A DNA stretch of 64,000 nt, taken from Mobula hypostoma (Eukaryota). A program made the translations under genes and the position numbers. The stretch is from assembly GCF_963921235.1 (NCBI RefSeq), contig NC_086097.1, positions 5,952,001-6,016,000 on the forward strand. Reading direction: 5' to 3'. This document shows, piece by piece, positions 16,336 to 31,153 of the stretch (positions are counted from its first letter, which is position 1; each line of letters begins with the position of its first letter). The notes below the pieces were generated by a model. It was not told the DNA's origin. It did not search any database and saw only the letters and a list, made by a program, of their open reading frames with translations.

Positions 16336-16456
16336 GAAATTAAGTTTCAGTAAGAACTCTATAAGTAAGATAAAATCATTACGATATCAGAATCAGGTTT
16401 ATTATCACTGGCATGTGCCGTGGAATTTGTTAACTTAGCAGCAGCAGTTCAATGCA

Positions 16457-16964
16457 GTTACAAAATACATGTGGACTAAGATGTTAACTGTCCTGTGCTA
16501 TCACCAGTGGGATCATCAGTTGATCTGCCACCTGTCTTCAGGAGTTTCGGCCTGCTTATGATCAGGACTCCCTCGAGGTGGTGGGCCAGCAGTGCTAAAG
16601 CACCACCTCCCACTGGTGAGCTTAAAAACTTGGCATCTGCCTCTATCAGAGTTGTTGGTCACTTCCATCCAACAGATAGTCTGCTCTTCAGGTGTCTATG
16701 CAACTACTGAAGGGTTTGCAAGATATGTATACACTGTCTGACTATCTGCCCCTCTGGACATACTTGGTCCACACCAATGCTGATCCTGTCTCTGTTGCCT
16801 CAGCTACAGCCCTGCTGGTTGACTTGATCTCTCTTCTAGTGAAGCCAAGGTCACGCAGCCACTTCTGGAGAGTGAACGCAATAGACCCACGGCAAGCCTA
16901 CTTTGAATGGATAGCATGAGACCTTCCACCCTCTGCACTCTGATCTTAATTCTGCATACCTGGT
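16457..16964 (-). mobile_element. Hero-clade (R2 superfamily) non-LTR retrotransposon 3' end
   Basis: Frameshift-corrected RYAELRSECRGWKVSCYPFKVG-CRGSIAFTLQKWLRDLGFTRREIKSTSRAVAEATETGSALVWTKY, a REL-endonuclease C-terminus typical of Hero, followed by a structured 3'UTR. Confidence 0.8.
16501..16619 (-). ncRNA. Candidate permuted/pseudoknotted hammerhead-like ribozyme in the Hero 3'UTR
   Basis: GGGAGUC...GAAACUCCU (helix III, GUC triplet), UGAUC/GAUCA (helix I), CUGAUGA, and a 12-bp closing stem. Confidence 0.55.
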
Positions 16965-17557
16965 TAATATAGAAGAAAAATAATAATAATAAATGAATGA
17001 ATTACAGTATACATATATGGAATAGATTAAAAATTGTGCATGAACAGAAATAGTATGTAGTAAAAAAGTGAGGTTGTGTCCATGGATTTAATGTCCATTT
17101 AGGAATCGGCTGGCAGAGGGGAAGAAGCTGTTCCTGAATCGCTGAGTGTGTGCCTTCAGGCTTCTGTACCTCCTTCCTGTTGATAACAATGAGAAAATGG
17201 CATGCCCTAGATGCTGGGGAGGTCCTTGATAATGGATGCTGCCTTTCTGAGACACCACTCCTTGAAGATGTTCTGGGTACTTTGCAGGCTAGTACCCAAG
17301 ATGGAGCTGACTAAGTTTACAACCCTCTGCAACTTCTTTTGGTCCTGTGCAGTAGCACCCCCACACCAAACCCGACAGTGATGCAGCCTGTCAGGATGGT
17401 ACATCCATATCCATGGTACATCGATAGAAGTTTCGGAGTCAGGGCTTTATGCCTGGCTCTGTGTAGGGTCATCCATACCAAACAGGCCAAAGGGTAGGGG
17501 CAGGACTAAGAGTAGTCCACCTGTCCTCCAGGTTTGGGGGTTCAGCTCAGGAGTAAC

Positions 17558-19449: not shown

Positions 19450-20690
19450 AGAAATAGGCCATTCAGTCCATCGTCTGTTCCGCCATTTCATCAGGGCAGA
19501 TCCAGTTTTCCATTCAGCCCCAATCTCCTGCCTTCTCAATTCATGCCCTGGCCAATCAAAGATCTATCAACCTCTGCCTTAAATATACATAAAGACTTGG
19601 CCTCCACAGCTACTGATGGCAAAGAATTCCACAGATTCACCACTCTCTAGCTAAAGAAATTCCTCTTTATCTCTGTTCTAAAAGGATACACCTCTATTCT
19701 GAGGCAGTGTCATCTGGTCTTCGATTTTTCCCATCATAGGAAACATCCTCTCCACATTCACTCTATCAAGGCCTTTTACGATTTGATAGGATTCAGTGAG
19801 GTCACCCATCATTCTTCTGAACTCTAGTGAATACAGGCCCAGAGCAATCAAACCCTCTTCATGTGACAAGCCATTCAATCCTGGAATCAGTTTCGTGAAC
19901 CTTTGAAACCTCTCCAGTTCTAGCACATCTTTTCAAAAATAATGGGGTTAAAACTGCTCACAATACTCCAAGTGAGGATTCACCAGTGCTTCATAAAGTT
20001 TCAACATTTACATCTTTGCTTTTATATTCTGGTCCTCTTTTTGAAATGAATGCTAACATTGCATTTGCCTTCCTCACCACGGGCTCAACCTGCAAATTAA
20101 TCTGCAGGCAATGCTGCACAAGGGCTCCCAAGTCCCTTTGTGCCTCATTTATTTGTATTTTCTCTCCATTTAGAAAATAGTCAATCCTTTCATTTCTGCT
20201 ACCAAAGTGCATGACCAAACACTTCCTGACACCGTATTCTATTTGCCATTCCTTTGCCCATCCTCCTAATCTAAGTCCTTCTGTAGTCTCTCTACTTCCT
20301 CAAAACTACCTGTCCTCCACCTATCTTCATATGGTCTGCAATTTATTTCAACATAGCCATCAATTCAATTATCTAAATCATTGACATATAAAGTAAGAAG
20401 AATTGATCCCAACGCAGACCCCTGTGGAAGGAACACCACTATTCCCCAGCAGCCAACCAAGAAAGGGCTACCTTTATTCCCATTCTTTGCCTCCTGCCAA
20501 TCAGCCACTGCTTTATCCATACTAGAATCTTTCCTGTAATACCGTGGCAATGTCAGGGGCGGCACCTTGTCAAAGGCCTTCTGAAAATCCAAATACACAA
20601 CATCAACTGATTCTCCGATGTCTATTCTGCATGTTATTTCTTTAAAAAATTCCAACAGATTTGTCAGTCAAGATTTTCCCTTGAGGAAAC
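19450..20690 (-). mobile_element. CR1 LINE RT/3' part (degenerate)
   Basis: VDVVYLDFQKAFDKVP, PQGSALG, LYSLEFRRM motifs. Confidence 0.9.
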
Positions 20691-27510: not shown

Positions 27511-30224
27511 AAACCCATTATAAAGTTCATATCAAGCAGCTGAGATCCCTGCTCTCCTGAATGTTCTGTAGCAGAATCTACATCAGGTACAACAAAGTGA
27601 TGCCGAGTTCTCATCAACAACATTATCAGTGTTGTATCAACCTACTGTCTTCTACAAGACCCTTCCAGAGCTTGGGCAGAAACAAGCAAAAGCTGCCTCC
27701 ACCCATTCTGGGGCAATGATAACATACCTGGCCTTATTAGTAACCAATTAAACTCCATCCTCTAAACCTGTGCTGCATTTCCAAATCAGCCACGGTCCCA
27801 GTGTTTCAATTAGGTCTTTCACTTGTTCAGTCAACTGGGTTCCATTGCCTAGCAAGTGATTCCCCAGAATGTTATGGTAGTGGCACGAAGATTATTATTG
27901 TCACCATTATCTTGGTCTTAAAGCTCTCAATGGTCTGGGGCTAGAGTACATCAAAGAATTGTTTTCATTATTGTCCAGCTCAAGCTCTCAAAAATCTCAA
28001 AAATTGTCAAAAGACAATTAACAGGTCAGCTTTTTTTAAAACTACACTCAAAGGATTCAAAGTACATTTGTTATCAAAATATGCATGCAGTGTACAACCC
28101 AGAGATTTGCCTTCCCCCACAGACAGCCAAAAGCAAAGAAAACCATCAAACCCTCCCCACACACAAAAAAACACACACAAACAGTGACAGGAAAATTAGC
28201 AAAAAACGCAATATAAAACACAACAAAACAAAAGAGTCCTGGCATAATTCACTTCAATTCAGTGTTGATTATCTACAGATAGGCCCGATTCCAAGTCTCC
28301 TGAAATAGCAACAGAAAAAGGAGGAGCAGAAACCAGAAAAAATGTCATAATGTGATTTACAGTCCAATCCACAAAAACGGTAGACCCAGAGCTCCTAAAA
28401 CTATCAGGGATGCAACATATTGACATTTTTAAGTGCCAGCTCAAAACCTACTTATTTAACCTGGCTTTTAACCAACAACTTTTTTTTATCTTTTAATTTC
28501 ATGTTCATTGCCATTTTATTATTTTATTTTCATGTTTGCACTTTATCGCATTGAGGACTTTGAACTACATCGTCTATGCTGGAAATCACTGTTTTTTATT
28601 GGGACTTTTTAACAGACTCATGTATTTTTCACAGTATGTGGTGGTTTATCCCCATTCATCGGCACAAAGCGTATAATGGCTAAACTAACTGCTTATAGCT
28701 CTATGGTTTATCATCTTTCTCATTTTTCATTGGCTAAGTATCAGCACATTACCCACGTGATGTAATTGTTTTGATTATGTAGCCTGTTAACTAGTTTACT
28801 CCTCTCTAATGAATTTCTTATCTTATCAATAAAAGTGAAGGACTTTTCAGAGGGCCCATCTTTAATCTTTTGTCTTTGCCATTCTCTTAACTCTTGGCAT
28901 TGTTTCTCAGCTCTTTATTTAGTTGGCTTAGTATTTGTGTTTTTATACTCTAAAATAAACTATTGTTAGAATTAAGACTGCTATCATTCCTGACTCCCAG
29001 AAGAACCCTAAGGATTAGAAAAGGAGCAGAGATCCAACAGGCTGTATCAAAAATTCTCTATAAATAAGATTATTATTACTATTTTCTATTCCAGATATTA
29101 TAAACATCGTAAAGGCTGGTTGAGGTGGCCTTCAATTACTCAACATTCAGATTTTGAGGTTTAAAATACTGAAAGACATTTCCTTCTCGTTGATTATGTA
29201 ATGTTCCAGGGTAGCGATCTGTGAAATTGTGTCGTCTACAGATTGTGGATTTATGAAGTATGTATCTGTGTGACTTTATCATCTTTTCTGAATTTACCGG
29301 TGAAGACAAATTGCTTTATAATATTTTCTCTACTTTGTGTTGGAGCTGAGCTGAAAATATGCTTGTGATTGGGTTCAGCTCAATATTTTGCATTTGCAGT
29401 TTAACTCCCACATCTATAGTAATAGTGACAAGCAAATTTAAATTAATCATCAAGGATCAACGTAATTCATCATACATATATACAAGTGCTCTACCGTATT
29501 AGGAATCTGCTGCAATGCTTCGCACAGGCAGACATACAACAAAAAACAACATTCAACAATTATAAGGAATAAAACATCATATTGAAAATAAAAAAAAACT
29601 AATTTCCTTTTATATCATCTCAATGTGTACTTAAGAATGTATAAATAATTATAGTTTTATACATATAAAAAATGGAAAAGGTAAAAAAAAATAAAGAATG
29701 ATATTTGAAAAGCTGATAAAGTAAGAAGGTAAAGAATAGATGTAGAATAAAATATGCATAAATATACATAAATACATAGATATCAGCATATATTTGCAAT
29801 GCAGACACTCAGCAATTCAGGAACAGCTTCTTCCCCTCTGCCATCTGATTCCTAAATGGACATTGACACTACCTCACTTTTTAAAAATGTACAGTATTTC
29901 TGCTTTTGCACATTTTTTAAATCTATTCAATATACATAATTGATATATTTGTTCATTAATTATTTTTTTAAATCTTATTTATTATTTTTTTCTCTTCTAT
30001 ATTATGTATTGCATTGAACTGCTGCTGCGAAGTTAACAAATTTCACATCACATGCCAGTGATAATAAATCTGATTCTGATTTGATTCCAGTTTAAAGTTT
30101 TGAGGGTGCAGTGCAGTGATGGGCGTAATAGATAGATGTGATGAGGGGTGAGGGGGCTAACAAAATGACTCTGTCCCAAACATTAAAAAAATACTAGAGA
30201 CTATATCCTCATCATAATATCCAA

Positions 30225-30565: not shown

Positions 30566-31153
30566 TCAGAATTCAGAATCAGGTGCATTATCACCTGCAT
30601 GTGACGTGAAATTTGTTAACTTAGCAACAGCAGTTCAATGCAATACATAATATAGAAGAGAAAAAATAATAAAATAAAAATATGATAATAAATAAGTAAC
30701 TCAATTACAGTATACATATATTGAATAGATTTTAAAAAACGTGCAAAAAACAGAAATAGTGTATATTAAAAAAAGTAAGGTATGTCCAAGGGTTCAACGT
30801 CCATTTAGGAATCCGACGGCGCACTCTTGAGGGGAAGAAACTGTTAGTGAATCGCTGAGTGTGTGCCTTAAGGCTTCTATACCTCCCTGGTGGTAACAGT
30901 GAGAAAAGGGCATGTCCTGGGTGCTGGAGGTCCTTAATAATGGATATGCCTTTCTGAGACACCGCTCCCTGAAGATGTCCTGGGTACATTTTAGGCTAAT
31001 ACCCAAGACGGAGCTGACTACATTCTAGATTTATAACCCTCTGCAGCTTCTTTGGTCCTGTACGGTAGCCTGCTCCCCCCCCACCCCCTCCATACCAGAC
31101 AGTGACGCAGCCTGTCAGAATGCTCTCCATGGTACATCTATAGAAGTTTTTGA

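Follow-up and report, generated by a model that had tools for sequence, protein, structure and literature searches.

The window described here, a stretch of 64,000 nucleotides (nt) from Mobula hypostoma (contig NC_086097.1, positions 5,952,001 to 6,016,000), carries on its minus strand a structured RNA domain located near the 3' end of a long interspersed nuclear element (LINE) of the Hero-like type. This domain gathers the complete nucleotide core of a hammerhead ribozyme and six helices, arranged around a pseudoknot and a four-way junction. The chances are about even that it is a hammerhead-type ribozyme fold, with a wiring unreported in the literature searched, near the 3' end of a high-copy Hero-like LINE. 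Whether the domain really cleaves itself is a comparably balanced question. A more demanding proposition, that an active pseudoknot resembling the published type-SGC hammerhead, with a split CUGAnGA block, has been selected in a Hero-clade LINE and, independently, in an unrelated eukaryotic repeat, falls slightly short of even.

Architecture of the domain

Read on the minus strand, the domain displays a GUC triplet (16568-16566), followed by GAAA (16548-16545) and then by CUGAUGA. The core set is complete: CUGAUGA provides C3 to A9, GAA provides G12 to A14, and the A15.1-U16.1 pair and C17 are present. Stem III is closed by A15.1-U16.1, and stem I starts right after H17 and ends right before C3. 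Stem I consists of 5 base pairs (bp) in the window copy, plus C16565 opposite A16520, and of 6 bp in the majority form of the family. A model's earlier reading of this DNA (hereafter the original prediction) had listed the minus-strand letters for 16619-16501 and their pairings; all agree letter by letter with the present analysis. Stems I and III, the core words and their register are as it gave them (GGGAGU/ACUCCU, and UGAUC 16564-16560 with GAUCA 16525-16521), and so is the perfect 12-bp outer stem.

The original prediction took this outer stem for helix II. The stem itself stands, but a 5-bp helix abutting GAAA and a 6-bp bridge had been missed. Because this stem II and the bridging helix are present, the outer 12-bp stem becomes one arm of a four-way junction. 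In stem II, the canonical G10.1-C11.1 pair abuts G12 of GAA, and the fifth pair is C-A in the window copy and C-G in the family majority. The bridging helix begins 1 nt past stem II and stops 2 nt short of the stem I strand. Outer stem alpha, hairpin b', stem II and core are the arms of a flush four-way junction at A9/G10.1, with 0 unpaired nt between them. No helix is contiguous with both A9 and G12: A9 enters the outer stem, and the GGGCC that precedes G12 belongs to another helix. The chain from A9 to G10.1 runs out via alpha' and returns via alpha and the hairpin GGUGGUGC-UUUA-GCACUGCU. The positions of these features and of the element that carries them are collected in Table 1.

Table 1. 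Features of the domain and of its carrier element, in window coordinates
Feature	Position	Strand	Remarks
Whole structured domain, hammerhead-like pseudoknot	16501..16619	-	119 nt
Outer stem alpha, 5' strand UCACCAGUGGGA	16608..16619	-	Pairs with 16501-16512, 12/12 bp in the window copy
Hairpin b', GGUGGUGC-UUUA-GCACUGCU	16588..16607	-	Flush, with alpha on one side and stem II on the other
Proposed stem II, 5' strand GGCCC (G16587 = G10.1)	16583..16587	-	Pairs with 16549-16553
Bridging helix gamma, 5' strand CCACCU	16576..16581	-	Pairs with AGGUGG 16528-16533
Stem III strand GGGAGU (U16567 = U16.1)	16567..16572	-	Pairs with ACUCCU 16540-16545 (A16545 = A15.1)
Predicted scissile bond, C17 = C16566 / 16565	16565..16566	-	By analogy with the hammerhead
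Stem I strand CUGAUC (majority UUGAUC)	16560..16565	-	Pairs with GAUCAA 16520-16525
Stem II, 3' strand AGGCC (majority GGGCC), then G12 A13 A14 (16548-16546)	16546..16553	-	
CUGAUGA = C3-A9	16513..16519	-	Letters read directly
Outer stem alpha, 3' strand UCCCACUGGUGA (alpha')	16501..16512	-	Immediately 3' of A9
3' tail of the element past the domain	16462..16500	-	Family contig ends at 16462; sister copies end 45-50 nt after alpha'
Remnant of the open reading frame (ORF) C-terminus, two frames (...RYAELRSECRGWKVSCYPFKVG / CRGSIAFTLQKWLRDLGFTRREIKSTSRAVAEATETGSALVWTKYVQRGR), stop 16742-16744	16745..16961	-	ORF list and phmmer
5'-truncated copy (~500 nt) of a LINE with restriction-like endonuclease (RLE), Hero-like	16457..16961	-	Nested in the 3' untranslated region (3'UTR) of another LINE

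Two described arrangements were tried on this site and rejected. Canonical hammerhead types I-III fit neither strand, as the plus strand has no CUGANGA here and the minus strand no GAAA after CUGAUGA. Type SGC proper would require the strand after CUGAUGA to pair with the strand before GAAA, which yields 3 + 2 bp with a mismatch and competes with the 12-bp stem.

Chance expectation and stability

The site was scored with a descriptor holding UH, GAAA and CUGANGA in the given order and register, with stems I and III of 6 bp each and a tolerance of one mismatch in stem I. This descriptor matches the 64-kb window once, at this site. It is found in 10/400 dinucleotide-shuffled windows with one mismatch and in 0/400 with none, the latter being the state of the family majority; the rate in shuffles is ~0.025 per 64-kb window. 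The core words alone are unusual for a single window and are expected many times by chance in a large genome, and the weight of the evidence rests on the further helices and on the relatives. The minimum free energy (MFE) of the 119 nt is -52.9 kcal/mol, versus a shuffle mean of -38.6 +/- 4.0 (z = -3.6), and 0/200 shuffles are as good. A blastn comparison of the region with the window returned no second copy of the domain.

Relatives of the domain

A sister family is formed by five contigs of one metagenome assembly (L021, L023, L026, L039 and L067), in which 92/109 non-core columns are identical to the window copy. Its outer stem, UCAUCAGCAGGA/UCCUGCUGAUGA, differs by three pairs changed on both sides (alignment A3), all double changes being confined to this stem. 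On the same alignment, 93.9% of the cells of the six helices are paired, versus 25-52% when the 3' partners are slid. Hairpin b' has a loop of 10 nt on an unchanged stem, and stem III displays a G-C in place of the G-U of the window copy. Apart from this and from the sixth pair of stem I, no helix other than the outer stem varies. The sister copies are 5'-truncated at various points, none of them at the predicted cut.

More distant relatives were sought by scanning metagenome contigs with the pattern GAGTC N{14,20} CGAAACTC N{18,26} CTGATGA, which returned 76 loci, of the order of magnitude roughly estimated beforehand for chance. A protein-based related-locus search with alignment A1 gave 131 pattern matches in metagenome contigs and 94 in viral contigs, 0 being confirmed in either set, and an exact 19-mer had 0 matches in viral contigs.

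A second lineage stands out among the pattern matches. L036 and L033 are the same sequence found in two metagenomes, and only 25/89 of its non-core columns are identical to the window copy. It harbors stem I (UCGAAA/UUUCGA), stem II (GCGGC/GCCGC) and the bridge (GUACCU/GGGUAC). A hairpin, CUCC-UCAC-GGAG, lies flush between stem II and an outer UGGG that pairs with CCCG right after CUGAUGA. The layout of the window family thus recurs with other letters: pairs differing on both sides number three in stem I, three in stem II and two in the bridge, in a comparison of two lineages in which stem III is fixed by the pattern. The original prediction had mentioned fish Hero 3'UTRs that keep the layout while their paired bases differ; relatives that share the layout in this way do exist, as seen in the outer stem of the sister family and in the helices of L036.

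When the variable parts of L036 are shuffled, a stem I of at least 6 bp, a stem II of at least 5 bp and a bridge of at least 5 bp occur together in 8/200000 cases, and stem II with a flush junction in 179/200000. After multiplication by the 76 loci, the chance of obtaining the three-helix set is estimated at about 0.003 or less. All three helices are present in 0/69 other pattern matches. With a covariance model restricted to the close family's nested helices, L036 obtains 15.3 bits (E = 0.067), the top value outside the family, and the best unrelated sequence 10.3 bits. The helices of L036 were parsed explicitly: the MAFFT alignment A2 misplaced the GAAA block by two columns and was not used for counting, and the covariance-model alignment A4 shifts the stem II columns, which are unpaired in that model.

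The L036 (1-855) and L033 (1-725) sequences are AT-rich and apparently eukaryotic repeat DNA. Their common part starts ~190 nt upstream of the motif and reaches at least 400 nt past it; beyond its upstream limit the two contigs differ. Within 400 nt, their flanks contain no ORF and no match to a Hero-like protein (tblastn); the flanks of L026 and L067 are likewise devoid of a Hero-like ORF. A further candidate, L070 (401-462), has 6-bp stems I and II with the right spacing and no bridge; it lies in a 211-224-residue ORF of a 229-kb, GC-rich, bacterial-looking contig, and was rejected as probably due to chance.

Copies of the family in sequencing-run contigs

Contigs with a likeness of at least 80% were collected from four runs of four coded organisms, amounting to 4430, 4501, 4673 and 45 pieces, and 26-66% of the sampled words of the insert are present in runs of five coded organisms. 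The LINE family is very high-copy, being extremely abundant in at least five host organisms. The core letters (CUGAnGA, GAAA and the UH site) are kept in its majority. Inside the domain, the window copy departs from the majority at only two positions, for which the RNA changes toward the majority are C>U at 16565 (99-100% of depth) and A>G at 16553 (89-100%). The C-A mismatch that the original prediction ascribed to this copy is indeed private to it, the majority U at 16565 giving U-A. Both private changes hit pairs of the model, and the majority letters restore U16565-A16520 and G16553-C16583. This restoration counts as weak evidence for the fold when taken alone, because 86/119 positions of the domain are paired in the model. 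Through the same two changes, a weak competitor hairpin, CUUG/CGGG with its two G-U pairs, becomes CCUG/CAGG (16566-16551), in which all pairs are Watson-Crick; this hairpin is part of the MFE fold.

Other variable sites of the domain in the DNA runs are CpG pairs, namely 16548/49 (which includes G12, 4-5%), 16554 and 16574/75. Variants of CUGAUGA account for 0.01-0.16% in three DNA runs. Between organism D and organisms A/B, the majority sequences show 0 differences in 16462-16619 and 7 in 16620-16741.

In 15 contigs of X1 and 24 of X3, the 3' end of the family is matched up to 16544 and then gives way to one consistent unrelated flank (agreement 0.70-0.77). This 16544/16545 junction may be chimeric, or may belong to a SINE-like repeat (short interspersed nuclear element) using only the last ~83 nt of the element. 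One X3 contig (depth 37) joins 16525 to 16567, with 41 nt skipped and one edge 1 base from the predicted cleavage site. That depth steps mark copies whose start is the cut site was considered and rejected, as contig depth is not copy number and the sole repeated junction is at 16544 and not at 16565. Seven small runs from organisms A, B and E contain 26-55% of the sampled words of the insert, as contigs only; the LINE family may be transcribed, the RNA nature of these libraries being a guess.

The carrier element and its setting

Two 3'-end copies of the surrounding LINE are found elsewhere in the window (29798-30080 on the plus strand and 30573-31149 on the minus strand). Neither contains a Hero-like insert, and both go uninterrupted from '...tctatatta' to 'tgtattgcattgaac'. 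Because these copies cross the point without it, the segment ~16961-16457 is a separate nested element. An assignment of the motif to the LINE with the ORF end at 17088, as part of its own 3'UTR, was rejected on this ground. Family contigs end near 16462, and the surrounding LINE resumes at 16456. The original prediction placed the cut about 110 nt from the 3' end of the element: the location near that end holds, and the distance is corrected to ~104 nt from the family 3' end, the domain itself ending ~39 nt from it. Flanks are unrelated among the six element copies examined. The window insert, 5'-truncated and dead, carries a mismatch in stem I and another in stem II.

The ORF remnant reads, in two frames, ...RYAELRSECRGWKVSCYPFKVG / CRGSIAFTLQKWLRDLGF...WTKYVQRGR*. 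With its last 51 residues, phmmer gives seven matches (best E = 7e-11), five being relatives of the ORF C-terminus and two unrelated repeat proteins; a word-index search with the 51-residue remnant found no relatives. A search with P0006, one of the phmmer relatives, gave P0010 to P0012; it also pointed to two proteins of Branchiostoma belcheri as the nearest named proteins. The remnant matches the C-termini of P0010 (985 residues) and of the B. belcheri proteins. P0010 possesses an RVT_1 domain at 245-498 (E = 1e-20), followed by CCHACG...H...C and RPD...ELTV...K.KY (motifs identified by eye) and by the shared C-terminus. It displays the ORF layout of HERO elements: a single ORF with a reverse transcriptase (RT), a CCHC motif and a C-terminal restriction-like endonuclease. 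HERO-1_BF and HERO-3_BF are Branchiostoma families, and HERO is an RLE clade with mostly non-site-specific insertion (PMC4640811). By its sequence features, the carrier element is an RLE (R2-superfamily) LINE, and its assignment to Hero is plausible. The Hero label of the original prediction holds for the RLE LINE group, through the motifs of P0010 and the Branchiostoma relatives, and goes beyond what was found as far as the Hero clade itself is concerned.

The two copies of the surrounding LINE are inverted and lie ~500 bp apart, with an ORF ending in ...RFRNSFFPS..RFLNGH* and a tail ...aataaacctgattctga. At 19678-20667 on the minus strand lie pieces of a third LINE, whose reverse transcriptase is CR1/L2-like (...VVYLDFQKAFDKVP...); with E = 0.0015, their Pfam RVT_1 match is weak and misses the cutoff.

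Comparison with known ribozymes and RNA folds

The original prediction knew of no description of the strand order UH > GAAA > CUGAnGA. This order is already published: it is that of the type-SGC hammerhead of Eckert, Friedrich, Weinberg & Weinberg (NAR 2023, PMC10085705), for which there is in vitro validation. Type-SGC RNAs come from metatranscriptomes and cleave at the predicted site. They need stems I, II and III plus a stem bridging I and II, each confirmed by disruptive and compensatory mutants. The blocks S, G and C are assumed there never to be interrupted; between CUGAnGA and the stem II strand, known hammerheads are stated to have no insertions longer than 1-2 nt (PMC10085705).

The present domain shares with type SGC (the HRIMA-1 motif and its variants) the block order S > G > C and the crossing of stems I and III as pseudoknots. 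In both, a short linker, 5-6 nt here versus ~3 in SGC, connects the 3' strand of stem I with that of stem II. An extra helix joins the nucleotides after the stem II 5' strand with those before the stem I 5' strand, matching the HRIMA-1 SS_cons. In contrast, the 5' strands of stem II and of the bridge are located here upstream of the cleavage block and not after CUGAnGA, and block C is split at A9/G10.1 by an open-ended 12-bp stem and a hairpin. The host also differs, being here the 3'UTR of an animal LINE, whereas SGC RNAs are found beside hairpin ribozymes in metatranscriptomes. The strand order is thus already known, and the wiring and the host are unreported in the literature searched. Searches on Hero, NeSL, permuted hammerheads, type SGC and four-way-junction hammerheads returned no report of this wiring or host, and a word search in Forgia et al. 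2023 found no extra-helix terms.

With classical types I-III, including the type I of Penelope-like elements and retrozymes, the domain shares the 13 core nucleotides, the A15.1-U16.1 pair, GUC and the G10.1-C11.1 pair, as well as an association with retroelements. Unlike it, classical hammerheads have a three-way junction, no pseudoknots and contiguous blocks, and no Rfam hammerhead matches here. Hepatitis delta virus (HDV)-like ribozymes reportedly occur at the 5' ends of several LINEs, R2 among them. The likeness to these lies in a putative self-cleaving RNA in an RLE-type LINE, with a cut at the 5' side of the ribozyme, which stays downstream. They differ in fold and chemistry class, and in standing at the 5' end, where they free the element from a co-transcript, whereas the predicted cut is here ~104 nt from the 3' end. 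The RT-binding RNA of the R2 3'UTR likewise ends an RLE LINE on its 3' side, and it too is structured and in part a pseudoknot. Neither its sequence nor Rfam gave a similarity here, and no ribozyme core is known from the R2 3'UTR.

Alternative explanations

The rival that survives best is a non-catalytic 3'UTR fold, bound by the reverse transcriptase of the element to start target-primed reverse transcription, the hammerhead letters being a relic or protein contacts. RLE LINEs such as R2 carry an RT-binding RNA near their 3' end, and the domain lies 39 nt from that of the present element. Three further observations suit a fold of this kind: the domain and tail are more conserved between hosts than the upstream UTR (0 versus 7 majority differences), the part downstream of the putative cut is kept in every genomic copy, and the outer stem covaries within the close family while the hammerhead stems do not. 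Such a fold nevertheless leaves unexplained the presence of all core nucleotides, of G10.1-C11.1 and of the four type-SGC helices in exact register, and also the architecture of L036 despite 25/89 identical non-core columns. Near the L036/L033 motif there is no recognisable ORF or end of an element. The junction at 16544 hints, at most, at propagation of the last 83 nt by themselves. This explanation is considered unlikely, while deserving serious attention.

The exact model of the original prediction, with the outer 12-bp stem as helix II stacked on A9, a separate GAA strand and no further helices, is improbable. CUGAUGA does enter the outer stem directly in all three lineages, this stem is the best-supported helix (three compensatory pairs), and either stacking partner is topologically possible in a four-way junction. 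The 10.1-11.1 pair would, however, be U-A (C-G in L036) and not the usual G-C, and helix II would provide no 5' neighbour stacked on G12. The flush GGCCC/GGGCC, the CCACCU/AGGUGG helix and their L036 counterparts would be unexplained. This model and the four-helix model amount to two stacking choices of one junction, and only the latter accounts for both extra helices.

A chance co-occurrence of hammerhead words in an ordinary structured repeat is least probable of all: the descriptor does occur in shuffled windows, so that many sites are expected per large genome, and L070 has 6-bp stems I and II in a bacterial ORF by apparent chance, but the majority-letter descriptor is absent from the 400 shuffles, two more helices stand at the positions required by type SGC, and an independent lineage repeats the layout at the corrected probability given above.

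Several observations weigh against the favoured explanation of a hammerhead-type ribozyme, beginning with the way the relatives were found. The pattern demanded GAGUC, CGAAACUC and CUGAUGA, so the 20 core letters shared across lineages are imposed by the search, which is also blind to lineages with the same fold and without these letters. Within the close family, stems I to III show no covariation, nor does the bridge, and 5/5 sister copies have U-U as the sixth stem I pair. One diverged X19 contig, probably a dead copy, displays C3>U, G12>A and uncompensated changes in stem III. Block C is not contiguous: the UCCCAC... after CUGAUGA offers a complementarity of at most 3 bp, the partner GGCCC being at 16587-83. 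In silico, nested competitor hairpins are stable and the MFE fold uses CCUG/CAGG and other pairings, stem I alone being worth -4.4 kcal/mol in the window copy. Rfam gives 0 families at gathering score over the whole window and, in 16350-16750 at E <= 10, no ribozyme family, a spurious long non-coding RNA being the sole match; permuted forms are not expected to match the Rfam hammerhead covariance models.

The remaining objections concern cleavage. A 5' end at the predicted cut site is found in 0/6 copies examined. All genomic copies seen keep the last ~104 nt downstream of it, and their templates were therefore uncut. An efficient cis-cleavage would detach these ~104 nt, where target-primed reverse transcription must start.

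Proposed mechanism

In the hammerhead-type ribozyme favoured here, stem II would form a stack with the tandem G-A core, in the manner of a stacked four-way junction. A9 and G10.1 would then stay neighbours without a covalent link, and the catalytic geometry could be kept. The RNA would cut itself after C16566, most of the ribozyme remaining on the 3' product. By analogy with the HDV-like ribozymes of R2 and the hammerheads of Penelope-like elements, its role might be the processing of read-through or tandem co-transcripts, giving the downstream RNA a defined 5' end; this role is proposed with low confidence.

Implications

Should this RNA cut, the assumption of uninterrupted blocks, on which the six possible orders in Eckert et al. 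(PMC10085705) are founded, would fail, and the search space for hidden ribozymes would widen. If the more demanding proposition of an active, selected and independently recurring pseudoknot is true, the domain would be the first hammerhead of a cellular genome with a non-circular permutation, and the first ribozyme of the Hero clade. It would also add a third pairing of ribozyme and retroelement, after the HDV-like ribozymes of R2/RTE-type LINEs and the hammerheads of Penelope-like elements and retrozymes. Its place, the 3'UTR of a LINE, would be unexpected for a ribozyme, and the cut would set the 5' end of a downstream transcript or free a ~104-nt 3' RNA. The finding bears on how non-site-specific RLE LINEs define their RNA ends, and the abundance of the family in at least five host organisms should make the mapping of these ends easy.

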